From the IMG/VR virus record IMGVR_UViG_3300047546_003220: DNA of 64,000 bases. One strand, given 5' to 3'. The DNA comes from a virus. Taxonomy: Duplodnaviria; Heunggongvirae; Uroviricota; Caudoviricetes. Position numbers and translations under genes: made by a program. Under the pieces are notes generated by a model. It saw nothing but the letters and a program-made list of their open reading frames with translations. It was not told where the DNA came from and ran no database searches. The number at the start of each line of letters is the position of its first letter. The stretch's first letter is position 1. This document shows positions 10,649-28,969 of the stretch, piece by piece.

Positions 10649-10668
10649 CAAATATAATGATTAATCTA

Positions 10669-11235: not shown

Positions 11236-11258
11236 GTTTATTTGTTTGATTTAGATTA

Positions 11259-11266: not shown

Positions 11267-11290
11267 AGTGCATTGGTAATTACGGCAAAA

Positions 11291-12532: not shown

Positions 12533-12567
12533 CTGTCGTATTTTCAGCAAATATAAAGTAATTGTTG

Positions 12568-13833: not shown

Positions 13834-14042
13834 TCTTTTTTGTGTCTATAAAACCAAATAAGGTGAATAACAATAACGCACGAATTTACAACAATTGTTG
13901 GACCTGCAGAAATTCCAACACCATAAATAATCCAAAAACAAGCACCGATTGTATTAATCAGTCTTAAACGGAAAATGTTCTCAACTAAGAATGAACTTAG
14001 AATGAGAACAGTTCCAATGTATCCAAATATTTCCCAACTCAT
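13812..14042 (-). CDS. small 2-TM membrane protein
   Basis: Two hydrophobic helices (IGTVLILSSFLV…; FWIIYGVGISAGPTIVVNSCVIVIHLIWF) and a basic C-terminus; 76 aa. Confidence 0.35.
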   Translation of the reverse strand: MSWEIFGYIGTVLILSSFLVENIFRLRLINTIGACFWIIYGVGISAGPTIVVNSCVIVIHLIWFYRHKKEWNSKKK

Positions 14043-14494
14043 TTCGCGAATGCCTTATCTGCCCAAGTCTTAGCCCCAACCAAAGTCCACAAATTCATAT
14101 CACACATATCAGGGAAAGACTGTCTCATAGTTCCCACAGTGATTACCTTTAAAAAACCAAGGTCGATTGAATACCACTTACCACCTTTGGTAGTGTAAAC
14201 GTTCATCCACTGACCGTATTCGTTCTTAGCTTGAATGTTAACCAAAGAATTCTTACCATACCCACGGATTACGTCAACGGTTCCTTTGGTGTCGTGGATG
14301 TTGATGAACCCCGCCTTGCATTTGCCTGCAATACGGAATTCATATTCCTTGTTGATATCTTTCAGGTGGTTTGAAACTGAAACGTCGAGAGATTTACCTT
14401 TAACGTAAGTTCTGAATGAACCGTAAAAAACGTCAGAAGAATAGGCGTTGTTGGTGTTGATGTGAAGTGCGGGGATGGTGATGGTTTGGGTCAT
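14039..14494 (-). CDS. hypothetical beta-rich protein
   Basis: ATG at 14492-14494 and a -7 box 23-30 nt upstream. Confidence 0.4.
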   Translation of the reverse strand: MTQTITIPALHINTNNAYSSDVFYGSFRTYVKGKSLDVSVSNHLKDINKEYEFRIAGKCKAGFINIHDTKGTVDVIRGYGKNSLVNIQAKNEYGQWMNVYTTKGGKWYSIDLGFLKVITVGTMRQSFPDMCDMNLWTLVGAKTWADKAFAK

Positions 14495-14516
14495 AGTGTG
14501 TTTGTTTTTGTGAATA

Positions 14517-14524
14517 CAAATATA
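14517..14524 (-). promoter_or_regulatory. -7 element TATATTTG (minus strand) for the 14039..14494 gene
   Basis: CAAATATA on the plus strand, within GTGAATACAAATATA (compare GTGAATACAAAGATA at 9151). Confidence 0.45.
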
Positions 14525-14625
14525 CGACCCTCAAAGTTACCAGCCAAAAAATTTTATATGGACTTCAAAATTTCTTTGACGTTGAGCCATTCTATCCCTC
14601 TCCCTGTGCCAGTCGATGTAGTTCA

Positions 14626-15048
14626 TCATACCTTATCACAGATGTGAGGTTGGTAACAACCTTGACCTCCACCTTCAACATATCCAACTCTATCGTTGAT
14701 GTTTGTTGAACGAAGATATGGTGTCTCTTGACCACAGATTACACATCTGTCTTTCTCATCCATCTTTGGGTCTCCTTGAAGAATACATCCTAAGTGGTCG
14801 TAACCTACGAGGTAATCGTACTCAACTTCTGAGGTATCTTTACCGCAGATGGAACAAGTCCAAGGTCTAATAATTTTTTTGACGGTTCCGTCAGGGGCAA
14901 TATCCAAAAAGAAATGTTCATCATCTCTTGGTGGACCTTCTTGATTTCTTCTTTCTTGCCAATACTTGTTTCTCACAAGTTCCCCTAAAGCATAGTTATT
15001 TGAATTACTGAGAATTTCTTCTGATGTGATGGTCACTGTAATGCTCAT
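14626..15048 (-). CDS. zinc-ribbon protein (two CxxC pairs). The ATG start is at 15048 (MSITVTITSEEIL).
   Basis: …WTCSICGKD…DRCVICGQE… and a further C…C pair. Confidence 0.35.
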   Translation of the reverse strand: MSITVTITSEEILSNSNNYALGELVRNKYWQERRNQEGPPRDDEHFFLDIAPDGTVKKIIRPWTCSICGKDTSEVEYDYLVGYDHLGCILQGDPKMDEKDRCVICGQETPYLRSTNINDRVGYVEGGGQGCYQPHICDKV

Positions 15049-15107
15049 ATGATTTGTTTTTAAAAAAATATGATACAAAAACAAAAAAACAAATCTATTT
15101 ATATGTT

Positions 15108-15521
15108 ATGGAAAAAAAATCACAAGAGTGGTTAGAAAAGTTCAGAAATACATTGGGTGAAAAGTATAAGTACATCTTAACTTCAGAGCTCAAAAATTAT
15201 GAAGTGCTAAGTTGTTTTTGTGATGAAGTGATTTTAGATAAAAATGACGAGTTGATAGAAATAAGTTTGGATATCCATGTGGATTTCATGGGTGGGTGTA
15301 ATGGTGATTCATATTCAATCGGTTACATGATAAACCAAATGAACGATGACTTAAGAGCTGTATTATATGAATTTATTGTTGATAAAAAAACTTTAAAATT
15401 CAGAAAAGCAAGTGAAAATGACCCAATGTTAAATGACGGATTATTTTTAGACTTCATTTATAAAATTGATGAGAAACACGAAGCCAAGATTTTTTATAAA
15501 TACGAATACGAAGAGTTATAA
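15108..15521 (+). CDS. hypothetical protein (first gene of a plus-strand island). The ATG is at 15108; the track start at 15054 is probably an extension.
   Basis: ORF with an ATG start; divergent from the 14626..15048 gene. Confidence 0.35.
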   Translation: MEKKSQEWLEKFRNTLGEKYKYILTSELKNYEVLSCFCDEVILDKNDELIEISLDIHVDFMGGCNGDSYSIGYMINQMNDDLRAVLYEFIVDKKTLKFRKASENDPMLNDGLFLDFIYKIDEKHEAKIFYKYEYEEL

Positions 15522-16387
15522 TGATAAGTAACGAAAAGATATATAAGATTGCCAAGAATTTACATGAGTTCACGGGACTACACACTTACAGTTCCCCAAC
15601 CAATGTAATTACCCTTTTCAAAAATAGGAGGGACCAAACAACAGAATACATAAGAAATTTCGGACCAGATAATTTCGTTAAGATTTGTATTGCAATGTGG
15701 GGAATATCAAGTCAGGCATCATTTGAAGAAATTGAAAGATGGTATGAGGAATTGTTTTTTGCAACTGTGTTTTACACAGATGGGGATTACCATGAAAATG
15801 AGTGTGATGACTGTAGCGGGAATGGAAGTGTAGACTGTGATTATTGTGATGGGAATGGAAGAATTGATTGTGATGACTGTGACGGAAGCGGTAAAATTAG
15901 TTGTGATACATGTGATGGAGATGGTGAGGTTGAGGATGGTGGTGATACGAAGACTTGTGAAACTTGTGATGGTGATGGTGATGTATATTGTGATACTTGT
16001 GACGGTGACGGCTACGAAACATGTGACCAATGTTCGGGTGGAGGTAGTGAAGAATGTAGTGAATGTGATGGTAGTGGTACAATAGTATCTGATTTTGAAA
16101 AGAATTATTATGTCCAATTAATCGCATCTTGGAATCCAACACTCAAAACTAAATGTGAATTAGAAGAGGAAACAATGAAGCCAATAACCTCTCAAACCAA
16201 ATTTGAATCTCTAAATTCCGTGATGATATTAAACACCGATGAAAGCTATGCTGAATTAGATACTGAGGTTCAAGAACATAAAATATACTGTTTGCAGTTT
16301 ATGGGAGACTCACCAAGATTAAGTCTATCTCCATTTGATACTAAAATAGATATGGTAGCTTGGGACGCTGACCACCTTTATTTATGA
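15521..16387 (+). CDS. protein with about ten tandem CxxCxGxG zinc-finger repeats of the DnaJ cysteine-rich type
   Basis: …CDDCSGNGSVDCDYCDGNGRIDCDDCDGSGKISCDTCDGDGEV…CETCDGDGDVYCDTCDGDGYETCDQCSGGGSEECSECDGSG…. Confidence 0.55.
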   Translation: MISNEKIYKIAKNLHEFTGLHTYSSPTNVITLFKNRRDQTTEYIRNFGPDNFVKICIAMWGISSQASFEEIERWYEELFFATVFYTDGDYHENECDDCSGNGSVDCDYCDGNGRIDCDDCDGSGKISCDTCDGDGEVEDGGDTKTCETCDGDGDVYCDTCDGDGYETCDQCSGGGSEECSECDGSGTIVSDFEKNYYVQLIASWNPTLKTKCELEEETMKPITSQTKFESLNSVMILNTDESYAELDTEVQEHKIYCLQFMGDSPRLSLSPFDTKIDMVAWDADHLYL

Positions 16388-16872
16388 GTGAAGTAAATTA
16401 TTTTTTGAAGGTTTTATCGAAAGAAGGATATCCAAATCCTGATGTAAAATCTATTGCCGCAATGATGGATTATAATATAGAATTATTTCTATTAGACCTA
16501 AAACAAGAAATCGGTGAAGATGGTGTAGTTGATTTTTGTGAGAAAGCAATAGAAAAACTTACAGGTAAAGAAGGTCTTAGAGTTGATTTGGATGGACCAA
16601 ACGGTGATGAATATTGTTATATACACATATACCCAATATATTACCACGAGGATGAATCTGAAAATGATGTTATAAGTAAACATGTTTGGGGTGACTCAAA
16701 AATTTTGAGTACAAATGAAGAAGGTGAAGGGGAATATATGACTATTCAAGAGGTCATTGATAATACAGACATGGGTGGTTGGTCTGATTTAGACGACCTA
16801 CTCGACCATATCAAAGAGAAAGCATACAACAAAGTATATCAAAACTGTGGTTTTGGTATATGGTGGGAATAA
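16384..16872 (+). CDS. hypothetical acidic protein
   Basis: A 162-aa ORF that overlaps the previous gene by 4 nt, suggesting translational coupling. Confidence 0.35.
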   Translation: MSEVNYFLKVLSKEGYPNPDVKSIAAMMDYNIELFLLDLKQEIGEDGVVDFCEKAIEKLTGKEGLRVDLDGPNGDEYCYIHIYPIYYHEDESENDVISKHVWGDSKILSTNEEGEGEYMTIQEVIDNTDMGGWSDLDDLLDHIKEKAYNKVYQNCGFGIWWE

Positions 16873-16875
16873 AAA

Positions 16876-16895
16876 ATGGGAGACCGAAGTCTCCC
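16876..16895. terminator. bidirectional hairpin terminator (TGGGAGAC cgaa GTCTCCCA)
   Basis: A perfect 8-bp stem with a T-run on the minus-strand side. It sits between the convergent 16384..16872 (+) and 16938..17237 (-) genes. Confidence 0.55.
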
Positions 16896-16937
16896 ATAGG
16901 GGCTGTACGGTTTTAACAGCCACTCCACCACCAAGTT

Positions 16938-17237
16938 TTACTTAACTTGGAAATCATTTCTAAAAATAAGATTAGCAATAAATTCCACTTGTTTGGAATC
17001 CTGATAGCCTAAAACATCATCGTTGGCTTCAGGGACATAGTATTTTGTAACAAAGTCCCGAGTTTCCTCATCTAAGATGGCAATCTCAAAATCATTCTCG
17101 AAATCTCCGTATAAACCCTGAGCACCTCCCACAATTGAAAGAGCGACTTTACCATCGGAAAGGACCGTTTGACGAGCTCCTTCCATTCTATTTGAGTGAG
17201 GCTTAGAGTAAGATATTATGTCTTTAATTGTAATCAT
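16938..17237 (-). CDS. hypothetical protein
   Basis: A 99-aa ORF with an ATG start at 17235-17237. Confidence 0.35.
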   Translation of the reverse strand: MITIKDIISYSKPHSNRMEGARQTVLSDGKVALSIVGGAQGLYGDFENDFEIAILDEETRDFVTKYYVPEANDDVLGYQDSKQVEFIANLIFRNDFQVK

Positions 17238-17500
17238 TTTGAGTTCAAAAGTTGTTTTAATTTAATTTCAAGAAGTTCGATGTTGTCCTTATCCTTACGG
17301 TTCTTGTTAGGTTTCATTCGAATACAATCAATAATCTCACGGATATAATCCGCTTCAGATTGCTCAACAGGTTCGGGAGAACCTTTGAGAAGTTTGTCTT
17401 CATTTTCAACATCGTCCTTAGCATTTCTCTCGCCAAGTTTGTACGCCCCGTACACAAGCGCTCCGAAGAACGCATATCTTAGAATTTGTTTGGTGTTCAT
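17234..17500 (-). CDS. small membrane-anchored protein
   Basis: N-terminal TM segment ILRYAFFGALVYGAYKL. Confidence 0.35.
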   Translation of the reverse strand: MNTKQILRYAFFGALVYGAYKLGERNAKDDVENEDKLLKGSPEPVEQSEADYIREIIDCIRMKPNKNRKDKDNIELLEIKLKQLLNSK

Positions 17501-17778
17501 TTGGTTACCTCCGCTTCGATTTTAGATTTATTAACAAGATGGTCAGTTAGAGTGTACATATCAAGTTTAGTGGTAACGATTGAGTTAACCAAGTGCTTAT
17601 ATGGTATATGAACCAAAAAATCGGTTCCATTGAAAAATGTGAGGTCGTTTTTTGTCTCGATACAACCTTGTACGAGTTTCAAGAACAACTTAAATTGACT
17701 AGCATTTACAAAGGTCTCTTCCAAAAGAATTCCGAAAGTCTCGTGTTGAATTTTTACGTGATGGCTGTGTAGGTTCAT
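17497..17778 (-). CDS. hypothetical protein. The ATG start is at 17778 (MNLHSHHVKIQ); the track start at 17808 is TTG.
   Basis: A -7 box TATCTTTG lies 18-25 nt upstream. Confidence 0.35.
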   Translation of the reverse strand: MNLHSHHVKIQHETFGILLEETFVNASQFKLFLKLVQGCIETKNDLTFFNGTDFLVHIPYKHLVNSIVTTKLDMYTLTDHLVNKSKIEAEVTK

Positions 17779-17795
17779 ATCGTTTTTATTTACAA

Positions 17796-17803
17796 CAAAG
17801 ATA
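17796..17803 (-). promoter_or_regulatory. -7 element TATCTTTG
   Basis: CAAAGATA on the plus strand upstream of the ATG at 17778. Confidence 0.4.
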
Positions 17804-17834
17804 AACAATTATTCGGTACCACAAAAATTATTTT

Positions 17835-18374
17835 TTAAATCTGTGGTGATATAGGTGTAACTACTTCTTTACCATCAGAAATAATTCTATAAGTGGTAAT
17901 TTCACCCAAATCAGGGAAACTTATCAGTTCGACTCTAATTCCCCATCTTCCCACTTGATTGTTGACTTCAGGTGTTACAATAGAAGTTAAATCCACCAAG
18001 TCCTCCCAAGTTGTACCTTCGACCATATCACGAATAATACCTTGAGTTGTATCAACCAATACGTCATTTGCATGCATTACCCCCAAGAGAAATTTTTCAA
18101 CATCGTAGATATGATATCTAACAATACTTGATAACACAACACTTTTTTCATCCAAGGAAGTAACAGTTTGTGGTTTCAAATTTACCGTTTGGGTAATAAC
18201 AGGGGTTACCCAAATCTTATCAAAGAAAGGGAGTTTAAAATTTAAACCTGGATAAACTACTTTCTTGAATTTACCAAAGGATAAATGCACGCCTTGTTCC
18301 CATTGGTCAACTATTTTGAATGGAAGGATATCGTGAATGAAAGTAACAACGACTTCTATTAATTTATCAAACAT
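17835..18374 (-). CDS. SPFH/band-7 (prohibitin/HflC-like) domain protein. The ATG start is at 18374; the track start at 18395 is GTG.
   Basis: …QGVHLSFGKFKKVVYPGLNFKLPFFDKIWVTPVITQTVNL…VLSSIVRYHIYDVEKF… follows an SPFH-domain pattern. Confidence 0.5.
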   Translation of the reverse strand: MFDKLIEVVVTFIHDILPFKIVDQWEQGVHLSFGKFKKVVYPGLNFKLPFFDKIWVTPVITQTVNLKPQTVTSLDEKSVVLSSIVRYHIYDVEKFLLGVMHANDVLVDTTQGIIRDMVEGTTWEDLVDLTSIVTPEVNNQVGRWGIRVELISFPDLGEITTYRIISDGKEVVTPISPQI

Positions 18375-18394
18375 ATAATTTGGGTTTTGTACCA

Positions 18395-18402
18395 CAAATA
18401 TA
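18395..18402 (-). promoter_or_regulatory. -7 element TATATTTG
   Basis: CAAATATA on the plus strand, 21-28 nt upstream of the ATG at 18374. Confidence 0.4.
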
Positions 18403-18428
18403 CGAAAAAATTTTGAATATTAATAAAA

Positions 18429-19382
18429 TTATTTGTATTTGAGTAGTCTATCGCTTTGAATCATGTATACATACTCGGGCAAGAATTCTTCAATTTCCTT
18501 ATAGAATTTTTTACAGTCTTTGACTCTTTCACTTTCATCGTAATTGTACACAATTTTTCTGAACCATATGTGGTCCCAATTAAGTTCTTCTTTTGACTTA
18601 TCATGAGATAACATATAGAAAAATGGGTCTGCTCTTCCTACCTCCGAATCAACATATTCTGTATCAGCCAAAAATACCCTATCTGTTAAAGTTTGTGGTA
18701 AGACATTATTGTTTCTGAGTGATTGACCAAATAGTCCTTGGTCTGTTACAAGCCAAAACCATTCAGGAACTTCATTTTTGGTGTTTACCGCTTTCAAATG
18801 TTCTTCAAGATATTCTTTCTGAACTGTCTCGTCATTGATATAAAGAAACGAAGTATTGGGTATTAACATCTTATAAGAATAACCGTCCTTTGGTTTCCAA
18901 TGTTTGATTTCTGAATATTGTTGTTCTGTTGGATAATAATAACCTCTTGGGATTTCCCAATAAGGAATTGTGATTTTTGAATCAAAGACCCATTCAGGGA
19001 GCCTTTGTCTGACGATAAAATCCAAATCCAAAAAAACAAAAGGACCTTTTTCTTTTCCGATTACAAAAGATTTACCCGAAGTCCAAAATTGACCAGCATC
19101 AACATAATCGTAGTTTTCAAGGGTATGAACATCAATTTCATCCCACAACTTAATCATGTTGTTTTTTCTATAATATTCGAAACCAGTTTTGTCGGTGAAA
19201 AGTTTTGTTGGTCCATTGAATCTTTTCCAATAACCAACCGCCAATATGGTGAACAATAACTCTTGGTCTGTGGTCATGTAGACATCGGACTCTTGAGCTC
19301 TATAAACACTGAAAGCATGACCTCTCAGCCTTTTTCTCTCAACGTAAGGTTTCGTCCAATTTACGAAAACACCCTTCATCAT
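18429..19382 (-). CDS. possible GT-A-fold glycosyltransferase-like protein (paralog of 19339..20277)
   Basis: …KGPFVFLDLDFIV… is a DxD-like motif after a hydrophobic strand and matches …KGPTTVFDLDFRLF… in the neighbouring gene. Assigning a GT-A fold is an inference. Confidence 0.3.
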   Translation of the reverse strand: MMKGVFVNWTKPYVERKRLRGHAFSVYRAQESDVYMTTDQELLFTILAVGYWKRFNGPTKLFTDKTGFEYYRKNNMIKLWDEIDVHTLENYDYVDAGQFWTSGKSFVIGKEKGPFVFLDLDFIVRQRLPEWVFDSKITIPYWEIPRGYYYPTEQQYSEIKHWKPKDGYSYKMLIPNTSFLYINDETVQKEYLEEHLKAVNTKNEVPEWFWLVTDQGLFGQSLRNNNVLPQTLTDRVFLADTEYVDSEVGRADPFFYMLSHDKSKEELNWDHIWFRKIVYNYDESERVKDCKKFYKEIEEFLPEYVYMIQSDRLLKYK

Positions 19383-20277
19383 CTTTTAAATTATAGATTT
19401 CATTGAGAATTTCAAGACCTCTCACGTCGTTTAAAGAATACTCTGCGTAGTTTCTTATTGTTTCAATTTCAGGTTTATAATATTCACCGTTCAAACTGAA
19501 ATCTTTTTTATTGTTACCATAATGATAAATAAAATTGGATGAATTTTCCAACGTGATATCTAAGTCAACAGCATATTCGGGAAGTGGTCCATCTTGTTCA
19601 TCATTAATGAGAACAGCAACCTTTTTGTTATTTTTCTTGATTAACTGTGCCAGCATATACTGTTCAGCAAATAATATATAGTTTTCACAGTAATCTATAT
19701 TTTTGTTTTTATTAACACTACTCCACTGATACATATAATCCAACGCAAAATCACAATATTGATTTTTAAAATCATTGTCCTTAATGTAAAGGCATGAAAC
19801 ATTTAATGAATAACCATCCCACTCAAAGTCACTTCCTATAACAATATCTTTTAGACAATGTTCAGGAGTGGAGTAATAGTACTTACCCTCGATTGATTCG
19901 AAAGAATATGCACCAACGTCGTGATTGAAAAATCCAATTTTTGAAATGTCTTTAAACAATCTGAAATCCAAATCAAAAACTGTCGTAGGTCCTTTTGTTG
20001 CCCTTTGAGCTAAAATTTTTGAATATGCCCAAAAAAACTTTGGACTTATTTTATATTCTTTATTTAAAACTGAATCGTTAATTTCATTAAAAAGGGATGT
20101 GATTCTGAAATTCCCCAAATACTTTCTTGTGTGGTCATCACAAAAAAGAATTCGATTAAAACTTGGAAAAAATTTTTTTACAAAAAGCACATTGGATACC
20201 AAAGACATTAACTCTGGTTTGGATTGTTTCCAACTCGAATCCTTATATCTATCATGGGCGACCCATATTGCGTTCAT
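19339..20277 (-). CDS. possible GT-A-fold glycosyltransferase-like protein (paralog of 18429..19382)
   Basis: The N-terminus MNAIWVAHDRY resembles GT8-like starts, and the DLD motif is shared with the neighbour. Confidence 0.3.
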   Translation of the reverse strand: MNAIWVAHDRYKDSSWKQSKPELMSLVSNVLFVKKFFPSFNRILFCDDHTRKYLGNFRITSLFNEINDSVLNKEYKISPKFFWAYSKILAQRATKGPTTVFDLDFRLFKDISKIGFFNHDVGAYSFESIEGKYYYSTPEHCLKDIVIGSDFEWDGYSLNVSCLYIKDNDFKNQYCDFALDYMYQWSSVNKNKNIDYCENYILFAEQYMLAQLIKKNNKKVAVLINDEQDGPLPEYAVDLDITLENSSNFIYHYGNNKKDFSLNGEYYKPEIETIRNYAEYSLNDVRGLEILNEIYNLKDDEGCFRKLDETLR

Positions 20278-20311
20278 GATAGAAAAATAATAAATGATGG
20301 GAAATAAAAAA

Positions 20312-20330
20312 CCCCAAGTTTAACTTGGGG
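20312..20330. terminator. hairpin terminator CCCCAAGTT-taa-CTTGGGG flanked by A-runs and T-runs on both sides
   Basis: A perfect stem between the 20340 stop and the 20277 start. Confidence 0.55.
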
Positions 20331-20339
20331 TTATATTTT

Positions 20340-20930
20340 TTAGAATAAATCAGGGTCTTTTTTGTCTGTAGTTTCTATTGGAACATTAGTTGGAACGGTC
20401 CCATCAAGTGGTACCGTATTTGTAGCATCATTGGCTACGGTGCCAGTGTTTGTTGAATTGTTGGTCAATGTAGTTGGTTCTGTTGAGGAATATACAGCGT
20501 CTGCCCCTTGGAAGTCGTCAACCCCCATCACATCTGTGTCGACCACTGTCGGATTGAGATATTCATTTTTATAACTACTCCAAGCCTTATTAGTTCTCGG
20601 ACCAAATCTTCCATAACCTCTTCCTTTATTCACTTTACCATCGGCGTATCCTGTAGCCCAACCCGCTTTGTTGATGTCTAACCAATCCTGAAATTTTTTA
20701 ACTCCTTCAGAATTTGCTAGTTCTGTTGGGATTTGTATACTAGGTCCCGAGCCACCACCTGAACCACTACCTGAACCACCACCTGAACCACCACCTGAAC
20801 CACCGAACCCTGTCGGGTCAGTAATATTAATTTGTTCCGAAATGAATAAATTTTCCGAATCAGTTTTTCTTATATCGTAGACCATAAATTTCTTCATAGT
20901 CTGAATTTCATTGATAATTTCTCTTTTCAT
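20340..20930 (-). CDS. protein with a Gly/Ser linker and a peptidoglycan-binding-like (PG_binding_1-like) domain
   Basis: A (GGSGGGSGGGSGSGSGGGSG) linker, then VKKFQDWLDINKAG…YADGKVNKGRGYGRFGPRTNKAW, which resembles a PG-binding repeat; the tail is Thr/Asn-rich. Confidence 0.4.
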   Translation of the reverse strand: MKREIINEIQTMKKFMVYDIRKTDSENLFISEQINITDPTGFGGSGGGSGGGSGSGSGGGSGPSIQIPTELANSEGVKKFQDWLDINKAGWATGYADGKVNKGRGYGRFGPRTNKAWSSYKNEYLNPTVVDTDVMGVDDFQGADAVYSSTEPTTLTNNSTNTGTVANDATNTVPLDGTVPTNVPIETTDKKDPDLF

Positions 20931-20931
20931 A

Positions 20932-21732
20932 TTACGCTTTTAAAACCCATTCCGTTTTATTTTTCAAACCTCCTGGTTCATCAGGTCCTGACGCAACGCA
21001 CTCACACTTTGCCGACCAAGTTTTTCCACCTTTTTTCAAAAGAACGTTAGCTTCATTTGGGTAACCCGCGATAGCACTACCATTCAAGAAAAAACTAAGT
21101 TCACCACCTTTATAAGGTACTTTACCATGTTGTTTATCTCCTTCACCATAAACCTGATATCCAGTTACGCCCTCTAAACATTTGAAAAAGTTTGCCACGA
21201 CTGTTGTTTGGGCATTTGGTGTAGGTGTTGGTGTTGGAGTAACTGCGGTTTTTGCCACATCTTGTTTATCCTTATCAGCCTCTAACCAATTCATTAATGT
21301 TCTACGAGTTTCTTTACCTGTAGAACCATATCTCGACTGATATAGACTTTTCAAATCATCATAAAGGCTATCACCTTCATCGTCTTCATACATCTCCATA
21401 AATCGTTTAAGACAAGGTCTTACTACAGCCTCATCCGAAACTTTACAATACTTACCCTTATATTTCTCTAAGATTTTTTTTATTTCATTGAGGTCAGATT
21501 CTGATGTCCATCCCGCACCTCCAGTTACAATGCCAGCTAGTTTACCTGTGAAACCCGCAGTTCCATCCATTAAATCTACGACACGTTCAACGTCGTCCAT
21601 CAAATCAGTATCTGTAAATGGGTCTTGAGCCGTTCCTGTTCCCTCTTTGATTAAAGATTTTGTTTCAACTAAAGATTTTTTGATTAAGTTGATTAGTTGA
21701 GACTCTGTTAGTCTTATTTTTCTTTTATCCAT
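20932..21732 (-). CDS. hypothetical protein with the shared N-terminal motif (MDKRKIRLTESQLINLIKKSLVE) and a TPTPTPTP linker
   Basis: ORF with an ATG start at 21730-21732. Confidence 0.4.
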   Translation of the reverse strand: MDKRKIRLTESQLINLIKKSLVETKSLIKEGTGTAQDPFTDTDLMDDVERVVDLMDGTAGFTGKLAGIVTGGAGWTSESDLNEIKKILEKYKGKYCKVSDEAVVRPCLKRFMEMYEDDEGDSLYDDLKSLYQSRYGSTGKETRRTLMNWLEADKDKQDVAKTAVTPTPTPTPNAQTTVVANFFKCLEGVTGYQVYGEGDKQHGKVPYKGGELSFFLNGSAIAGYPNEANVLLKKGGKTWSAKCECVASGPDEPGGLKNKTEWVLKA

Positions 21733-21796
21733 GAGTTCTTTATTTTATAAATATATTTCAAAATTGATTTTATTTTCTTATAAATATACTGCAAAC

Positions 21797-21828
21797 AAAA
21801 AAACCCCAACGTAGATACGAAGGGGTTT
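21797..21828 (-). terminator. rho-independent terminator (AAACCCC…GGGGTTT with a T-run in minus orientation) closing the tRNA/ncRNA transcription unit
   Basis: The hairpin is followed on the minus strand by TTTTTTTGTTTG. It lies upstream of the 21732 start, so it ends the RNA unit coming from higher coordinates. Confidence 0.55.
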
Positions 21829-21839
21829 GGCAAAAAACT

Positions 21840-22890
21840 CTGAGAATACAAGTTTTATTGAGAATCTTTAGAAGGATTATTTGTTCCCTTCATTTCCACT
21901 TCCTTTTGAGAAGTAATCCTCAGTCACGGTCAATTAGATTAACCAATCCTTAAGTTGTGTACTACTCTCTCTTTACTCATCACTCTTCGACCCTGCCGAG
22001 CCAATTCATCCTTGCGGGATTAGAGAATTTTCGAAAAACTCATGTCGGGTTTGGGACCCTTCACGGCAATGAACCTCTCATTACTATGTAGTGACCTGTT
22101 GTCCACAACTGACGAGCACTTTTCCTTTATTGATTTTATTAGATTTTCACCAATTGAAATTAATAATAGGTTGGTTTACGGATGAGGAAGGTAGCGGCCC
22201 GTCAGAAGCCATGCCATCTTTTGAACGACACGATACTAAACTACCCTCTGAAGTCTCCCGACCTCCATGTTTTACGACAACTTCATAACTCATACCCTTG
22301 GTAGGGTCAAGGTTAAGGTTGAATCAGCACCACCTGTTTTTCAACATACCTTTCGGTTTTAAGTCACCGTTTACATTGGAAAACGTGATTGTGATGGTGG
22401 ATGCCATCAATTCTCACATATATCCTTCAGGTTATTCTTATTGGTCTTCCGACCTCAACCAAACGACCCGTATCGCTTGGTCACCCAACCACGTTCCCTA
22501 CAGTGTTACCCTCGGTAGTAAAGGTTAGATGATATCCTGATTGTCTACACGAGTTCCACCCGAAGATGAAACCGCAGAAATCACCAAACCAGTGATTCCC
22601 ACTTTATACTGCTTTCACAGTTTATTTAACGACCATAGACGGCCAATATCTTAAAACAAAGAACTATCTAATTTGGAAAGAAGAGGTATCTTTACGACCC
22701 ACCGAAGTTGGAACATTTACAACCCCTTCCTTCCAATTGTCTTACAAAGTTAAGAAAGATTTTGGAATCAGTCAAATCCTTATAAAACTTTTTTTGAAAT
22801 TTTTTCATTTAATTCCGAAGACCCCCTACTCTTAATAGGACAGGTTTAAATGAAATATTTCAAAGAACTAATCAGGTCTCCCTGATTGTA
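21840..22890 (-). ncRNA. candidate large structured non-coding RNA of about 1.05 kb between tRNA-Met and a terminator; identity unknown (GOLLD/ROOL-like large ornate RNA, intron or degenerate tRNA array)
   Basis: No ORF above 76 aa on either strand across 1.05 kb in an otherwise gene-dense genome. GC content is visibly higher than in flanking coding DNA. The stretch is co-oriented with the adjacent tRNA and bounded by the minus-strand terminator at 21797..21828. Confidence 0.25.
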
Positions 22891-22891
22891 G

Positions 22892-22963
22892 TTGCGAGGG
22901 TAGGATTCGAACCTACGACCCCAAGGTTATGAGCCTTGTGAGCTACCGCTGCTCTACCTCACG
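22892..22963 (-). tRNA. tRNA-Met (anticodon CAT), initiator-like: C1:A72 mismatch, A73 discriminator, T-loop TTCGAAT, CCA not encoded
   Basis: Sense sequence CGTGAGG-TA-GAGC-AGCGGTA-GCTC-A-CAAGG-CTCATAA-CCTTG-GGGTC-GTAGG-TTCGAAT-CCTAC-CCTCGCA-A folds into a canonical cloverleaf. It is strongly similar in layout to E. coli tRNA-fMet. Confidence 0.85.
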
Positions 22964-23070
22964 ATATAAGTTAATGATAAACTCCTACTACCCCACGGTC
23001 ACCTATCCACGTCATGCGCTGGTTGTACCAGCAGGAGCTATCAATATTTTTAAGAACTTAATTTGAAAAA

Positions 23071-23118
23071 GAAGTCCCACAAATCTAAGGAGATTTTCTC
23101 AAATAACCAAATTCGTGG
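23071..23118. other. perfect 7-bp inverted repeat (GTCCCAC…GTGGGAC) with a 34-nt loop, upstream of the tRNA
   Basis: Seen directly in the sequence; it could be an operator or processing site for the tRNA/ncRNA unit. Confidence 0.3.
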
Positions 23119-23384
23119 GACTGAAATTTCGAGATTACTATTTTATTCATCTCGGTGTTTCACTTTTTGAAAAAACTCTCGTTCTGTCGTATGTAGTGAA
23201 ACATTTTTTGGGGTGTTCGTCCTTTCGGACATGAACATATAAATATTCCCAAAATGACGAAAAGTAACCTTTGTAAAAAAAATATTTTACAAATCCATGT
23301 CGTCGATATTCTTTTTTATTTGTCTTTCGATATCCCACCAACAGTAAAGACCAAAAGCAATTACTCCTACAAATATAATCCAAA

Positions 23385-23804
23385 TCATTTTAATATAATT
23401 TCAGCGAGTTTATGCATATATTCACCCGAAGTTTCAGGTTTTACCTCATCGATTGTGAAATATCCCCAATCTGTATGTTCTTCACCGTCAATAGCGTTTT
23501 CTAAATCAGGTTCAATACATTTTTCGACTTCTAACAAATAAACATACATTAAACCTTTTACCTTTTTTCCATCACGGGTATGTCTTGGAATTAGTCCGAT
23601 GAACTTTAATTCAAGTCCATCAATATCTTTAGCTGTTTCTTCGAAGAATTCTCTTCGAGCACCTTCTTGGGTTGATTCATTTTCTTCAAGTTTACCACCT
23701 GGAATGGACCACATACCAGGAAAAGAACCAAGATTATTTCTTTTACATAGGAGGATTTTATCTCCACATTTGACCATCACACCAACGTACCTTTGTTGTT
23801 TCAT
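23385..23804 (-). CDS. Nudix hydrolase
   Basis: Nudix box GGKLEENESTQEGARREFFEETA (Gx5Ex7REUxEExGU). Confidence 0.75.
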   Translation of the reverse strand: MKQQRYVGVMVKCGDKILLCKRNNLGSFPGMWSIPGGKLEENESTQEGARREFFEETAKDIDGLELKFIGLIPRHTRDGKKVKGLMYVYLLEVEKCIEPDLENAIDGEEHTDWGYFTIDEVKPETSGEYMHKLAEIILK

Positions 23805-23818
23805 TGTATTTATTAAAT

Positions 23819-24166
23819 ATGATTGTTGAAATTAACGAAAATTATTTTAAAGTTAAAACTTTAACAGACCCAAAATCACAAAAAGTTGGGATGATGAATA
23901 AAGTTTTTGATGACTCATTTAATGGTTTATTATTTTTAATGGGTGGAAAGAAACAATGTTTTTGGATGAAAAATTGTATCATTCCGCTCGACATAATTAT
24001 TATAAAAAATAATGTAATAGTCAACATTCACCACGATTGTCCTCCATGTTTAGAGGAGCCTTGTCCAAGTTATTGTGGTAATGGTAATATTGTTTTGGAA
24101 GTTGAAGGTGGTACTTGTGAGTTGCTTGGTATTGAGGCTGGCGATTCGGTTGAATATCACATTTAG
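23819..24166 (+). CDS. DUF192 (COG1430) family protein. The ATG is at 23819; the track start at 23804 is TTG.
   Basis: …NGLLFLMGGKKQCFWMKNCIIPLDIIII…VNIHHDCPPC… matches the conserved DUF192 core pattern. Confidence 0.4.
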   Translation: MIVEINENYFKVKTLTDPKSQKVGMMNKVFDDSFNGLLFLMGGKKQCFWMKNCIIPLDIIIIKNNVIVNIHHDCPPCLEEPCPSYCGNGNIVLEVEGGTCELLGIEAGDSVEYHI

Positions 24167-24702
24167 TTTTTCCAAATAGTTTCGTTCACGTCTTCTCTAT
24201 TTCCAATAAATCTTGCCAAAACAAAGAAGAAATCACTTAATCTGTTAAGATAGATTGTGATTGGGTGTAGTTTTTCGAAATTATCCAATACTTTACATTC
24301 TAATACTTCAATTTCAGTTCTTCTTGCAATTGTTCTACAAATATGTGCTAAACAACTAGCTCTTGTACCTTTTGGTAAGATAAAATTTTTCAGTGGTGGT
24401 AACTTTTGATTCATCACATCCATAGCATCCTCTAACAACTTTACATCCTCTTCGGTAACTTCAGTTAATTCTGTTTTATTATCGTTGATAATCATGGACC
24501 CCGCATTGAAAAGATTCCATTGGATTATTTCCAAATCAGCATGTGAATTATAGGTCTCACTTCGGAGTAATCCTACAAATGAGTTAAGTTCATCGAGTGA
24601 ACCTACAGCCTTAATTTCTTGAATTGTTTTGGGAACCCTTCGGCCTGATAACAAACTTGTTGTGCCGTCGTCACCTTTTTTTGTGTATACTTTGTTTGCC
24701 AT
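24163..24702 (-). CDS. PduO-type ATP:cob(I)alamin adenosyltransferase. The ATG start is at 24702 (MANKVYTKKGDDGTTSL); the track start is TTG.
   Basis: The N-terminal motif VYTKKGDDGTTSLLSGRRVPK…AVGSLDELNSFVGL is the signature of the PduO/MMAB family. Confidence 0.7.
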   Translation of the reverse strand: MANKVYTKKGDDGTTSLLSGRRVPKTIQEIKAVGSLDELNSFVGLLRSETYNSHADLEIIQWNLFNAGSMIINDNKTELTEVTEEDVKLLEDAMDVMNQKLPPLKNFILPKGTRASCLAHICRTIARRTEIEVLECKVLDNFEKLHPITIYLNRLSDFFFVLARFIGNREDVNETIWKN

Positions 24703-24720
24703 ACACAAATAATAAGTCAA

Positions 24721-26136
24721 TTATTGTTCGACTTCAACTTTTGAGGAATTAATTTTTTCTTTGATTTTTTCAACCATTTTCTTTCCCACTTCCTTCATAA
24801 ACTTTATATAGGGCACATCGGGTTTGTCGGGTGAATATCTATATGGGTCTTCGGATGGTCTTGTTTTTCTACCTAAATAATTGAGACCTGAAATATTTGT
24901 AATACACTTATGTCCTCCAGATTGAGATTGAATAAAGTCCCACATGTTAATTCCAACTTTATCTAACACATTTTTTTCCTCTTCAGTTAACTCAGAAAAA
25001 GGTTTGTCCATAATTGGTTTCAATTTGGATATAATTTCTTCTCCTCCCTCAATCATTTGAAATTTACCCCCAAATAGTGCATCAAAATCCTTAAATGTAA
25101 ATCCAACACTTTCAGGTCCAACAGAAATTTCACTTATCCATTTCAAAGTTGAAAGAGGTATTACTCTTTTTTTCAGTGCAGGTTCATATTCCAATAAAAC
25201 TTCTTGTGCTATCTCCCCCAAATTAACTCCCTTAAGTTGTCTTTCTTTTTTAAAAGGGTTACAAGATGCCTGTAATAGTCCCATTGGCCACAATAAAACT
25301 AAAAAGTCTGCATCAGGGTGAACTCTGAATGGAGTATATCTATCATAGGAACCACTTTTCATACTTCCAGCTCCATATTGGAAAATTATTCCGTCTTGAT
25401 AAACTCTTTTTGGATAATTTTTCATTTGTTCGTGATAATCTTCTGACCTTTTTTGTAGAACATCAACTGTTTCTGCATTGGTAGCTTTCATCCACGATTT
25501 AATGTTATTCAATATTGAAAGTAATGATGGTTCTGAATTCATTACAAGGTCTTCCATGAAACCTTTTTTATTCTTGAAGGCTAATATTAGTTTGTTAATA
25601 ACTAATCCAAGTAACATCTTGTTTTTAGACAGTGTCTTATCTTTATCAAGTCTAAAAATGTAATTAACTACATCTTCAGGATTCAAACCTTGCTTCACAA
25701 AGTCAGCCGAATCTACAGTGCTAATTAACGTGATGTCCTGAGAGGGAAATAAATCTTTTGGTGATACTATTTGTGAAATTGTCTCTACGTTGGAACGAGC
25801 TTGTCTGAATGATTTTGATGCTTCTTTTTCCGCACCAACTTGCTTATCATGGTGGTCAGTGTGTATTTTAAACATTGGTTTACCATGTGCAAAATCCACT
25901 AAAACTGGCATTGTATCACCTTCCGCATCATTTTTTTTAATAGCGAATTCTTTGTCCCCGTATTGAATGACGTGAGCTCCGACAACTTCTATACCATTAT
26001 CCTCAAGATATTTTTTCATGGCAATTGCGGTGGTCACACCATCTAAATCTTGGTGAAAATAAATTTCGGCTTTGGGATATCTCTTCCTCAAAGCCGATAT
26101 ATCTCTGAGACCTGACTCAACAATTACTCTTTTCAT
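24721..26136 (-). CDS. DHH/DHHA1-family phosphoesterase (NrnA/RecJ-like catalytic core with an inserted region)
   Basis: N-terminal FHQDLDGVTTAIAM (DHH motif I), …FKIHTDHHDKQ (DHH motif III) and C-terminal …QSGGHKCIT… (the DHHA1 GGH motif). Confidence 0.6.
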   Translation of the reverse strand: MKRVIVESGLRDISALRKRYPKAEIYFHQDLDGVTTAIAMKKYLEDNGIEVVGAHVIQYGDKEFAIKKNDAEGDTMPVLVDFAHGKPMFKIHTDHHDKQVGAEKEASKSFRQARSNVETISQIVSPKDLFPSQDITLISTVDSADFVKQGLNPEDVVNYIFRLDKDKTLSKNKMLLGLVINKLILAFKNKKGFMEDLVMNSEPSLLSILNNIKSWMKATNAETVDVLQKRSEDYHEQMKNYPKRVYQDGIIFQYGAGSMKSGSYDRYTPFRVHPDADFLVLLWPMGLLQASCNPFKKERQLKGVNLGEIAQEVLLEYEPALKKRVIPLSTLKWISEISVGPESVGFTFKDFDALFGGKFQMIEGGEEIISKLKPIMDKPFSELTEEEKNVLDKVGINMWDFIQSQSGGHKCITNISGLNYLGRKTRPSEDPYRYSPDKPDVPYIKFMKEVGKKMVEKIKEKINSSKVEVEQ

Positions 26137-26450
26137 TACTTCAATTCAATCGAAAAAATTTCAAATTTTTTCTTTGTTTTAGGCTCATATCCGAACATTC
26201 TCTCACCGTCTTTACCCATTTCAAACATGAACGTACCCTTTGGTAAAGCTGTTTTAACCTTCATAGATTGTTCACGACCTGTTTCAGTTCTAACAACTAA
26301 AATTTTGTTCCCCTCAGAGTCCATTTTTATTTCCGCTTCTGCATTAGCACCTGGTGTTACAATTGATATTTTTTTGTCTTTTTGTTCGCGGATTATTCTC
26401 TTAACAATTCTATTTAAATCCGATTCAGTTAATTTGATAATTTTTGCCAT
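26136..26450 (-). CDS. hypothetical protein with the shared N-terminal motif (MAKIIKLTESDLNRIVKRIIREQ)
   Basis: ORF with an ATG start at 26448-26450. Confidence 0.4.
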   Translation of the reverse strand: MAKIIKLTESDLNRIVKRIIREQKDKKISIVTPGANAEAEIKMDSEGNKILVVRTETGREQSMKVKTALPKGTFMFEMGKDGERMFGYEPKTKKKFEIFSIELK

Positions 26451-26821
26451 TAGTATTTGAGTGTTAAAAGGTATTTTGATTTATTTATTAAAGCTAGCAT
26501 TTCATCTCGTAGATTTAGTAAATCAGTATCATATCTAGAGTCCAATTGGTCAGTCATACCAACCATAAATTCAGTAATACCATCCATAAAGTTTTGAATA
26601 CTCAATGCACTTATGTCTTGAAACATAAGAGCGAACTCAGGTTCAAACTCAGGCCTACCGTATTTACCCATCATAGTTTCTGTAAAATTATCAATGAGTG
26701 CATCAAGTCCTTCGTATATTTGGCCATAAGTCTTATGTTTTGCATCACCAAATGTCTGCCAATGAAGAAATCTCCATTGTAATTGAATTTGTACAAATTT
26801 TTTTATTATTTCTTCTTTCAT
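26450..26821 (-). CDS. hypothetical protein with a weak ferritin/Dps-like helix pattern
   Basis: …LHWQTFGDAKHKTYGQIYEGLDALIDNFTETMMG… loosely resembles the Dps helix A-B pattern; this is only suggestive. Confidence 0.3.
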   Translation of the reverse strand: MKEEIIKKFVQIQLQWRFLHWQTFGDAKHKTYGQIYEGLDALIDNFTETMMGKYGRPEFEPEFALMFQDISALSIQNFMDGITEFMVGMTDQLDSRYDTDLLNLRDEMLALINKSKYLLTLKY

Positions 26822-26833
26822 AAATTATAAATA

Positions 26834-28066
26834 TTATATTCCTGGTATTGGATTCAATCTTCCCAATAACATACTTTTGAGGAATCCAGCTAATGGGTCT
26901 CCGTCAGATGACCCTGAAGATGAAACAGGTGTACTTACTTGAGGCTCTGAAGTTTGTTGTTGAGGTGCAGATGAAGTTGATGTTTGGGGTTGTTCCCTGT
27001 TGAATTTTACTATCTCACCATACTTCTTCTCTTGTTCACCTTTTCTATCATACTTACCAAACTCGTCGTCGAAGTTTTCCAAGGCTTGTGGAGTCTGATT
27101 ATATTGTTCAATTTTTTTCATCATTTGAGCTTCTCCCATTTGAGTTGATAGTTCCTCAGGTCCAACAAAATTTCCCACTCCAATATAGTCTAAGAAACCC
27201 AACCACCATTTTGTCTGTCCCATCAAAATTTTGACTCTTCTACCCTCTGGACTTCTGAATAATCTTGGAATGCCACCAAAGAAAACTTGACTTAACATTC
27301 CAGGTTTAGATAAAGTTGCCACATCAAATATTTTGGTATTTTTCACAGCGCTTATTAAATTTTCAACATCAGCGGCTTTAGCCGTTCCTCTAGCAAATTT
27401 ACCTCCCAAAGTGGTTGCCAAACCTTTTACGTTCACACTTTTCTTTCCCGCGTTGGCTAGAAGTTTCAAATAGTCCGTCATCATATTTTTTAAACCATTA
27501 AATGGTCCCAACGGTAAAGAATCTATCACACCAATAACATTGTCCCCTGTCTTCCCTCCAAGTTTTTGTATCAATTTTCCAAGCGCGTTTGGTGCTTTTG
27601 CAAAATCGTCCACTAATTTAGCTGCAGAAAGATATTGTTTACTACCAGGAGCTGCGGTTTTCATTATTTTCAAAGCCTTATCCAAGGCTTTAGTTGAACT
27701 TGTACCTAATTTGGCTGCTCCCATTACAGACTTACCTACGAAGTCTCCAAACATTGGAATCGCACTTACCAAACTTAATATACCGTAAAGGGTATCTCCT
27801 TGAGAGAAATAGGAAATGGCGTTGATTGAGTCGGTAATTGGCGTAGGGTCAACTATTCCTAAAAAATCCATGGCAGTATTATACCACTTAGCTTCTTTGA
27901 TGTTTTTCTTCTGAGGGTACAGATGGTTCAAAACATCCATCACCACTTTTTGTTCCTCAACACTAAGTTTTTCCCATTTGTTTTTGATAGAATCATATGG
28001 GCTCTCATTTACTATTTGGTTCTGAATGAGTTCTAATTGAGTTTGGGAAATTATGTATTCAGCCAT
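26834..28066 (-). CDS. hypothetical 410-aa protein with a Ser/Pro/Thr-rich C-terminus and the shared N-terminal motif (MAEYIISQTQLELIQNQIVNE)
   Basis: ORF with an ATG at 28064-28066. Confidence 0.4.
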   Translation of the reverse strand: MAEYIISQTQLELIQNQIVNESPYDSIKNKWEKLSVEEQKVVMDVLNHLYPQKKNIKEAKWYNTAMDFLGIVDPTPITDSINAISYFSQGDTLYGILSLVSAIPMFGDFVGKSVMGAAKLGTSSTKALDKALKIMKTAAPGSKQYLSAAKLVDDFAKAPNALGKLIQKLGGKTGDNVIGVIDSLPLGPFNGLKNMMTDYLKLLANAGKKSVNVKGLATTLGGKFARGTAKAADVENLISAVKNTKIFDVATLSKPGMLSQVFFGGIPRLFRSPEGRRVKILMGQTKWWLGFLDYIGVGNFVGPEELSTQMGEAQMMKKIEQYNQTPQALENFDDEFGKYDRKGEQEKKYGEIVKFNREQPQTSTSSAPQQQTSEPQVSTPVSSSGSSDGDPLAGFLKSMLLGRLNPIPGI

Positions 28067-28107
28067 CGAGGGAATTTTCTTTTATAAATATCCAAACAAA
28101 TAAAAAA

Positions 28108-28125
28108 AAGGGTCTTATGACCCTT
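28108..28125 (-). terminator. hairpin terminator (AAGGGTC ttat GACCCTT) overlapping the MTase stop codon
   Basis: An inverted repeat with flanking A-runs and T-runs. Confidence 0.45.
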
Positions 28126-28969
28126 TCATTTCCAATTTCAATTGTTTGTTCCTGTCGACAAAGTGTTGAACTCTATCATTTGCAACCTCACAATAGTTTT
28201 GACTGAGTTCAATTCCAATCCATTTCCTGTGAAGTATCTCAGCAGCCGCAAGGCTTGTTCCTGAACCACAGAATGGGTCTAATACCAAATCATTTTTATA
28301 TGTTAATATCTTGATGGCTTTCATGGGAATATCCATTGAGAAAGTAGCTTTAGTCATTTGTTTTGTGTCGGCAAAATAATCCCACTGACCATATACTAAT
28401 TCCATGAACTCTTTTTTATCTTCATCTTGGTATACAGTCTTTTTCTTTATCGTTCCGTCTTCTTGTTGTAAATCAATTATGTCTCCCTTCCATTGAGTTT
28501 CCCCTTTGATTTTTTTGATGTGATTTTTTTTATAAGCTAGAATTACACATTCTTTTGGATTATAGATATAAGGTGCGGATGGAGACATCCACGAACCCCA
28601 AGCAGTGGTTTTACTCCTATGTGGTGAATTTTCATTCAGGTCTACAAGTCCATAAAATTTATATCCTATGTCCTGCATAATTTTCCAAAGTTCTGCCACC
28701 ATGAAAATTCTACCTCCCTTGTCTTGACGGTTTATTTCGTAAGGAATGTTAAGTGCGATTCTCCCGTCATCTTTCAGAACCCTAAAAGCCTCCGACAACC
28801 ATAATACTGAAAATTCTTTGTATTCACTAAAAGGGACATCATCATTGTGGGTATCGTATTCGATACCAACACCATAGGGTGGTGAAGTTACTATGAGGTC
28901 AATTGAATTTTCAGGGAAAGTTTTCATGACCTCAATACAATCTCCATTATATATTTTATTTGTTTCCAT
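28115..28969 (-). CDS. beta-class amino DNA methyltransferase (N4-cytosine or N6-adenine; SPPY catalytic motif precedes the FxGxG AdoMet motif)
   Basis: …DLIVTSPPYGVGIEYD… (motif IV) followed by …LDPFCGSGTSLAAAE… (motif I). No partner restriction enzyme is visible, so it appears to be an orphan. Confidence 0.75.
   Translation of the reverse strand: METNKIYNGDCIEVMKTFPENSIDLIVTSPPYGVGIEYDTHNDDVPFSEYKEFSVLWLSEAFRVLKDDGRIALNIPYEINRQDKGGRIFMVAELWKIMQDIGYKFYGLVDLNENSPHRSKTTAWGSWMSPSAPYIYNPKECVILAYKKNHIKKIKGETQWKGDIIDLQQEDGTIKKKTVYQDEDKKEFMELVYGQWDYFADTKQMTKATFSMDIPMKAIKILTYKNDLVLDPFCGSGTSLAAAEILHRKWIGIELSQNYCEVANDRVQHFVDRNKQLKLEMKGS

Follow-up and report, generated by a model that had tools for sequence, protein, structure and literature searches.

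A full-length GOLLD RNA of env-38 architecture next to an initiator-like tRNA-Met gene in a tailed-phage genome

In a 64,000-nucleotide stretch of DNA from a virus of the class Caudoviricetes (IMG/VR record IMGVR_UViG_3300047546_003220), the whole of which we call the window, an earlier note had singled out about 1.05 kb (21840..22890) as lacking open reading frames (ORFs) and as a candidate for a large structured RNA. This segment consists of two parts, namely an 812-nucleotide (nt) structured RNA on the minus strand and a 242-nt spacer which bears a promoter. The RNA is an ordinary full-length member of a known family, GOLLD, and has the architecture of env-38, a GOLLD from a marine metagenome. 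It is highly probable, in our assessment, that this RNA has a promoter and a terminator of its own and folds into a self-assembling cage. Nothing at the locus is categorically new, in that a standard Rfam scan labels the copy and the structure of a close homologue has been solved; the linkage to an initiator-type tRNA and the motifs in the leader of the RNA are modestly new.

Identity and conservation of the RNA

The Rfam model of GOLLD (RF02032), which spans only the conserved 3' half of the RNA, matches the minus strand at 21837..22248 along its entire length (model positions 1-416 of 416) with a score of 320 bits (E 7.7e-91), about twice the gathering score of 150 bits. The 5' part (22249..22648, 400 nt) aligns along its whole length with the 5' domain of env-38, the sequence of which was taken from Supplementary Table 4 of Kretsch et al. 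2025 (PMC12286853). In the resulting end-to-end alignment nucleotides 4-810 of env-38 correspond to 22645..21843 of the window, with an identity of 66% overall, 62% in the 5' domain (env-38 nucleotides 1-420) and 70% in the 3' domain. Together the Rfam match and the env-38 alignment delimit an RNA of about 812 nt at 21837..22648, and all the sequence-level defining features of GOLLD that we tested are present in it. Rfam searches of 21600..23500 on both strands found no match at E<=1 to ROOL, HEARO, group I or group II introns, RNase P or tmRNA, and none of these classes reaches its gathering score anywhere in the window; GOLLD and tRNA are the only Rfam matches at E<=1 in this region.

The earlier note had proposed a phage-borne large RNA beside a tRNA, naming GOLLD first, and the covariance-model search which it suggested thus recovers precisely this family at full length. 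Its description of the surroundings was also accurate in two respects: no ORF longer than 76 amino acids (aa) is present in 21840..22890 on either strand, and the tRNA-Met(CAT) called by both ARAGORN and Rfam lies on the same, minus, strand. When gaps are measured between 100-aa ORFs, none in the window exceeds that at 21733..23384 (1652 nt), and the next-largest (811 and 624 nt) are occupied by chains of 71-99-aa ORFs. The proposed extent holds for the part covered by the RNA, the remainder of 21840..22890 being spacer that lies outside it. Likewise, the elevated GC content ascribed to the whole stretch applies to the RNA (0.419 as against 0.363 for the window), where it is modest and uneven, and not to the spacer (22649..22890; 0.322). 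A GC content of at least 0.419 is reached in only 12% of 812-nt windows, and the top-GC windows all fall within collagen-like tail-fibre genes.

A scan with a 3'-domain motif combined with local BLAST recovered 77 full-length homologues of 782-837 nt from IMG/VR viral contigs, and full-length homologues of the 5' domain, at about 70% identity, were found at 88 viral loci. The closest relatives are L059 and L122 (about 95% identity), followed by L138 and L198 (84%) and then by a broad group at 65-75%. The 14-mer CTGCGGTTTCATCT was tried as a probe of the viral contigs and abandoned, as its 120 rows were nearly all chance matches with only L059 real; gapped two-motif patterns were used in its place. 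In blastn searches against GenBank phages the only matches were to tRNAs and to one GOLLD-bearing uncultured phage of 635 kb (L242; LR745206.1:417443-423649), whose GOLLD scores 287 bits and which has the order tRNA-Met followed by GOLLD. Several other GOLLD-bearing contigs measure 150-385 kb, so that, with L242 included, GOLLD of this type is common in jumbo and huge phages.

Covariation among phage homologues, another check put forward in the earlier note, is strongly in evidence. We aligned 60 non-redundant copies (alignment A1) and derived from them a consensus structure of 220 pairs with RNAalifold. Changes on both sides are seen in 163 of the 220 pairs, as against 67-100 when the partners are slid, and the covariation score is 0.551, as against 0.08-0.12 with slid partners. 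The fraction of alignment cells that are paired (94.9% observed, 77.7% in shuffled alignments, 38-44% with partners slid) is inflated by the derivation of the consensus structure from the same alignment, an effect to which the two-sided counts and the slid controls are less subject. None of 500 shuffles reached the observed value for paired cells, for two-sided cell changes or for the covariation score. Both domains contribute, with two-sided changes in 88 of 113 pairs of the 5' domain (helices 1-5 and 8-23) and in 75 of 101 pairs of the 3' domain (helices 24-42). Two long-range helices in the consensus (6 and 7, joining 5'-domain GAG/ACA to the 3'-terminal UCUCAG) show zero two-sided changes and are not claimed. 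The helices of GOLLD are thus kept by compensatory substitution across 60 diverged phage copies.

These observations bear directly on whether the stretch might instead be what is left of a tRNA array, of a self-splicing intron or of a protein gene broken by frameshifts, as might be supposed of a non-coding segment adjoining a tRNA within a densely coding genome. ARAGORN finds no further tRNA in the window, and the Rfam matches at E<=1 include neither group I nor group II introns, which leaves the tRNA-array and intron alternatives of the earlier note without a counterpart in either search. The narrow length range of the homologues, the 163 pairs maintained through two-sided changes and the lack of any frame above 76 aa are likewise at odds with decay, and we regard all three explanations as having a negligible chance of being correct.

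Transcription signals and the adjacent tRNA

The AT-rich spacer between the tRNA and the RNA contains a predicted promoter of the Bacteroidota sigma-A type, with an A-rich UP-like tract upstream of its -33 element (Table 1), from which transcription is predicted to start at about 22740. In Flavobacterium the sigma-A -7 box is TAnnTTTG, located at -12 to -5 (PMC9723704). The central 80 nt of the spacer have matches in about 40 loci, frequently at several places in one locus, and an alignment of 55 copies yields the consensus AAAAAAAAGTTT..TTGACA-N17-TTAnCTTTGTAAAAC. This consensus agrees with the Flavobacterium -7 box and with the -33/-7 pattern of Bacteroidota promoters. Furthermore, 45 of 56 relatives carry the pattern TTG-N19-21-TAnnTTTG in the 260 nt before P1, the expectation being 0.044 per 260 nt. 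A scan for sigma-70 promoters returned nothing convincing (2 sites versus 6.1 expected), and it was solely by setting the relatives side by side that the promoter became apparent. A repeated 70-nt element of the spacer had been considered as a tRNA remnant, a candidate that was dropped since the alignment of relatives shows it to be the promoter. As a separate observation, many uncultured phages have the complete and strongly conserved module, made up of the A-rich tract, TTGACA, 17 nt and TTAnCTTTGTAAAAC, in repeated form both before GOLLD and between tRNAs, for example in L131:6676-7138 and L223:10964-11334. Elsewhere in the window TTG-N20-TAnnTTTG is found at 14517..14547, 23080..23110, 49379..49409 and 63799..63829; with the one before GOLLD this makes five sites, each of them on the minus (coding) strand and upstream of a gene.

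At the opposite end, the minus-strand terminator reported in the earlier note is real: a hairpin of -14 kcal/mol (z -2.2), followed by a U-run, starts 8 nt after the 3' end of the RNA.

The predicted leader includes a hairpin at about 22673..22736 (-29.4 kcal/mol, z -3.7), which relatives keep with both arms differing in sequence (judged by eye, uncounted). It is followed by the motif GTTCTTTG at 22657..22664, 8 nt before the start of GOLLD and 11 nt before P1. In 47 of the 60 copies this motif is found ahead of P1, at a distance of 4-118 nt. It could mark a site of processing or act as an atypical terminator, and the window as a whole shows no enrichment for it (4 matches versus 1.6 expected). 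The motif, as GTTCTTTG(A), usually stands just after a small hairpin, and it recurs at 22860..22868 after the hairpin that follows the tRNA. Most relatives additionally carry between GTTCTTTGAA and P1 a hairpin of about 65 nt, 'P0', with the layout ATTATCC.TTCAG, variable hairpin, CTGATAAA.GATAAT, which lies beyond the published boundaries of GOLLD. It is present in L138 (5640-5700), L131, L143, L223 and about 45 other loci, and absent from the window and from L059, L126, L176, L185 and L204, where it seems to have been lost by a deletion between two AAGATATT repeats.

The tRNA-Met gene lies upstream of GOLLD at a spacing of 242 nt. Bacterial initiator tRNAs lack a Watson-Crick pair at 1:72, combine a purine at position 11 with a pyrimidine at 24, have three G:C pairs at 29-31:39-41 and possess A73. 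In the Rfam alignment the phage tRNA displays C1xA72, A11:U24 and A73, and at 29-31:39-41 it has two G:C pairs; C1xA72, A11:U24 and these two pairs support its designation as initiator-like. It departs from the initiator pattern in A29:U41, which replaces the third G:C pair, and in having U:G rather than C:G at 3:70. A second predicted promoter of the Bacteroidota type is situated ahead of the tRNA, with a predicted start at about 23075 and a leader of about 112 nt (22964..23075). The separate motifs before the tRNA and before GOLLD suggest that each gene has its own promoter. The tRNA promoter is also enclosed by the 7-bp arms of an inverted repeat, GTCCCAC/GTGGGAC (23074..23080 and 23115..23121), which is conserved in five related loci, with changes in L223. 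The conserved leader of about 112 nt has no Rfam match, and the repeat and leader could represent an operator or an RNA structure.

Among the relatives GOLLD adjoins tRNA-Met, tmRNA or tRNA arrays. A same-strand tRNA-Met is its nearest upstream neighbour in seven of 59 non-redundant relatives; in ten a tRNA-Met instead follows the 3' end of GOLLD by 8-18 nt and in one more by 98 nt. When upstream, the adjacent tRNA(CAT) is 23-490 nt from the RNA. Of 26 GOLLD-adjacent tRNA(CAT), including those of the window and L242, 17 are without G:C at 1:72 and have purine 11:pyrimidine 24, seven are partial in these features and two are elongator-like; given a crude classifier and short loci, the linkage to initiator tRNA is a lead and not a result. 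Our literature searches turned up no paper linking GOLLD to initiator tRNA, and those for GOLLD with huge phages gave irrelevant matches only. At the tRNA-Met position of L138 (5990-6060, minus strand) and also of L198 there is a tRNA-like sequence with a CAT anticodon arm, a normal T arm and an aberrant D arm that neither ARAGORN nor Rfam calls.

The arrangement of tRNA and GOLLD on one strand raises the question of whether most GOLLD might arise as the 3' portion of a transcript shared with the tRNA-Met, started from the promoter at 23080..23110, and be freed from it by tRNA-processing enzymes. As a terminator the hairpin at 22870..22887, beyond the tRNA, is weak, since what comes after it is AGUUCUUUGA and not a U-run, and the ten relatives with a tRNA-Met 8-18 nt beyond the GOLLD 3' end imply co-transcription and RNase P cleavage for that arrangement. 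Yet a strong consensus promoter with its UP-like tract (22745..22775) stands between the two genes in the window, its motif recurs upstream of GOLLD in the 45 of 56 relatives mentioned above, and 36 of 59 relatives have no same-strand tRNA within 800 nt upstream. We consequently regard a predominantly tRNA-derived transcript as rather unlikely. Co-transcription with the tRNA, which the earlier note had assumed, is an interpretation and not an observation; the dedicated promoter renders it unnecessary, and an obligatory form of it is not supported.

Table 1. Coordinates of the GOLLD RNA, its parts and the flanking signals in the window
Feature	Position	Strand	Basis or remark
Full-length GOLLD RNA, ~812 nt	21837..22648	minus	5' end by homology; mature ends predicted
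3' domain (Rfam-modelled; 'ring' of env-38 cage, P14-P27)	21837..22248	minus	RF02032, covariation
5' domain, env-38 type ('cap' of cage, P1-P13)	22249..22648	minus	env-38 alignment, covariation
Invariant CCGAAAGG hairpin	22345..22360	minus	taken as L11a by position
Variable A/U-rich internal linker (J13/15)	22126..22184	minus	poorly conserved, length-variable alignment columns ~575-638
J13/15 dinucleotide GG, pairs with L20; bridge B7 in env-38 cage	22124..22125	minus	A1 columns 641-642
L20 loop CCCAA, partner of J13/15 GG	22051..22055	minus	A1 columns 717-718
Twin hairpins L21b (CCCGCAAGG) and L21a (GGCUC-GGCA-GGGUC)	21989..22020	minus	labels assigned by position
Intrinsic terminator hairpin	21801..21828	minus	then UUUUGUUUG, U-run 21793..21800
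Transcribed leader, ~92 nt	22649..22740	minus	predicted
GOLLD promoter, Bacteroidota sigma-A type, TTGACT-N17-TAACTTTG	22745..22775	minus	pattern match and alignment of relatives
-33 element TTGACT	22770..22775	minus	
-7 box TAACTTTG	22745..22752	minus	
A-rich UP-like tract upstream of -33	about 22776..22806	minus	
Hairpin directly after tRNA	22870..22887	minus	then AGTTCTTTGA (22860..22869); weak terminator or processing signal
Initiator-like tRNA-Met(CAT), no encoded CCA	22891/2..22963	minus	ARAGORN; Rfam 63.5 bits
Second Bacteroidota-type promoter, TTG-N20-TAGATTTG	23080..23110	minus	upstream of tRNA

Predicted cage assembly and possible role

The structure of env-38 obtained by cryo-EM is a 14-mer nanocage of D7 symmetry, stable at nanomolar concentration (PMC12286853; PDB 9MEE). 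Its L20-J13/15 pairing, a pseudoknot first seen as covariation, is a bridge between subunits of the cage (PMC12286853). The corresponding nucleotides here pair in 120 of 120 cells of A1 (CG 36/GC 23/AU 1 for one pair, GC 55/UA 5 for the other), as against 4-63% in slid controls. A second element, the L21a stretch GCTCGGCAGGGT, is identical to that of env-38 and presents the loop GGCA with an internal palindromic GC; exchange of GC for CG was not seen in this loop in A1, where the clade has GGCA or CGCA throughout. In env-38 the L21a and L21b loops form symmetric kissing contacts between half-shells (PMC12286853, PMC12990946). The covarying J13/15-L20 pairs and the identical L21a stretch make assembly into a cage a reasonable expectation for the RNA described here. 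The segment equivalent to its A/U-rich linker is disordered inside the env-38 cage (PMC12286853), and ARAGORN finds no tRNA within this linker in the window.

Stoichiometry varies within the family, the full-length GOLLD of Streptococcus agalactiae being a 12-mer and its 3' domain alone mainly a 10-mer (PMC12990946). With only 66% identity to env-38, the copy in the window might accordingly form a different assembly, such as a 12-mer, a 10-mer or an open oligomer, or might need a phage or host protein. It lacks the 'P0' hairpin that most relatives have upstream of P1, and protein genes for NUDIX, DHH-like, DUF192 and DNA methyltransferase products recur beside GOLLD in 13-15 relatives. These genes may merely show shared phage ancestry, however, and the alignment to env-38 runs from end to end with no large segment lost. 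The P21b and P11 branches, which distinguish env-38 from the 12-mer form (PMC12990946), appear by position to be present, and the tested contact nucleotides either covary or are identical to those of env-38. On balance a departure from the env-38 type of assembly seems to us the clearly weaker prospect, if one of some weight.

We therefore favour an env-38-like cage expressed as an independent transcription unit. The sigma-A RNA polymerase of a Bacteroidota host would start at about 22740 and produce a primary transcript of about 940 nt, from which the 92-nt structured leader would probably be trimmed near GTTCTTTG. The mature RNA would comprise the 5' 'cap' and the 3' 'ring' domains with a floppy A/U-rich linker between them. 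Its copies, most likely 14 as in env-38, would self-assemble without protein into a closed homo-oligomeric cage, held by loop-loop and A-minor contacts which include J13/15 GG with L20 CC and the palindromic L21a. Expressed from its own promoter during infection, the cage would be tied to translation or tRNA handling. The cage part of this scheme draws on homology and the role part on the neighbourhood.

Several points weigh against the scheme, in addition to the dependence of the consensus structure on its own alignment. The start site, the processing of the leader and the 3' end are predictions; the oligomeric state is not fixed within the family, and 66% identity cannot provide a stoichiometry; read-through from the tRNA promoter may contribute to GOLLD expression, given how poor a terminator follows the tRNA; and the function of GOLLD is conjecture.

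Expression of GOLLD rises during phage lysis (PMC12286853). As a working guess, we suggest that in lytic growth it takes part in the control which the phage exerts over translation or tRNA handling, on the grounds of the neighbouring initiator-type tRNA-Met, which recurs in relatives, and a published GOLLD-ribosome pull-down. The more specific notion that in this clade of uncultured, probably Bacteroidota-infecting and partly huge phages GOLLD is functionally coupled to the phage initiator tRNA is a long shot. Were it true, the cage might keep initiator tRNA or initiation complexes in reserve, protect them or pass them on, thereby giving the phage control of translation initiation, and the conserved leader (the hairpin and GTTCTTTG, with 'P0' in most relatives) would be an undescribed 5' processing or extension module of GOLLD. 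The value of the locus lies in the context it gives to the GOLLD family, as a cleanly delimited transcription unit in a phage with apparent Bacteroidota transcription and translation signals. The regularities that may guide work on GOLLD are the initiator-type tRNA, GTTCTTTG, 'P0' and the synteny with NUDIX, DHH-like and DUF192 genes.

The phage, its probable host and comparison with known systems

The genes for a NUDIX hydrolase, a DUF192 protein, a 471-aa DHH-like protein and an N6/N4 DNA methyltransferase, which recur beside GOLLD in 13-15 related loci, lie upstream of the tRNA at 23385..28969 in the window, and among them, at 24163..24720, is a gene for a PduO-type cobalamin adenosyltransferase, unusual in a phage. 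Downstream of the NUDIX gene is a 49-nt element (about 23210..23249, minus strand) with a GAAA-capped hairpin, ATATTTATATGTTCATGTCCGAAAGGACGAACACCCC, which is 96% identical in L223 (L223:10617-10665), where GOLLD itself reaches only about 68% identity. The collagen-like tail-fibre genes, three in tandem (858, 904 and 959 aa; 37032..45184, minus strand), have a GC content of about 0.58 as against 0.36 for the window, and account for the listed high-GC windows and for many spurious overlapping ORFs. Most other large proteins (20 ORFs scanned in all) have no PHROG family, and Pfam and PHROGs gave no match for the 266-aa gene just downstream or for most large ORFs, so that no cultured relative could be named. 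The best matches of an 843-aa protein of the window are in uncultured phages, including the 635-kb LR745206.1.

A GGAG/GAGG core at -20..-4 is present at three of 66 gene starts, and the 25 nt upstream are G-poor. This is consistent with initiation independent of the Shine-Dalgarno sequence, as in Bacteroidota (compare PMC6847099). Taken together, the -7-box promoters and the near absence of Shine-Dalgarno cores point to a probable Bacteroidota host. A scan of genome contigs with the 3'-domain pattern gave chance matches, with one weak, GOLLD-like match in Mycobacterium among the matches listed, and supplied no host information.

GOLLD was reportedly first described by Weinberg et al. in 2009, in prophages of Lactobacillales. 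Of the other large phage RNAs, ROOL, an 8-mer nanocage, offers a functional analogy only: it too is phage-borne, lies near tRNAs and builds a cage of RNA alone, but its sequence and fold are unrelated to the GOLLD described here, which gave no ROOL match at E<=1. Within the GOLLD family, the RNAs of Streptococcus agalactiae (12-mer, PDB 9L0R) and of other Lactobacillales prophages share the conserved 3' domain, are carried by phages or prophages and are located near tRNAs. At about 700 nt they are shorter, do without P9, P11a-c and P21b and assemble as 12-mers (PMC12990946), whereas the copy in the window belongs with the longer RNAs of the env-38 type and probably comes from a phage of the Bacteroidota rather than the Bacillota. 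Mycobacterial GOLLD is also associated with tRNAs, but reportedly sits within large arrays of tRNA genes (Morgado et al. 2020, PMC7549688), and in Mycolicibacterium a tRNA-Phe is found within J13/15 (PMC12990946); here, by contrast, a single initiator-type tRNA flanks the RNA and none is embedded in it.

The nearest known system is env-38 itself (JCVI_SCAF_1096627009515/1239-410, from the marine GOS data), which at about 830 nt is close in length to the 812 nt found here and aligns in both domains. A third of the positions differ and the sequence of the linker is unrelated, the comparison covering the RNA itself. The strings CTGCGGTTTCATCTT, GAGGGTAACACT, CAATAAGAATAAC and GCTCGGCAGGGT are nevertheless identical in the two, and the complementarity between J13/15 and L20 is kept. 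The resemblance extends to genomic layout, env-38 being situated 'downstream of Met-tRNA' in its marine metagenome (PMC12286853), as is the GOLLD of this phage.

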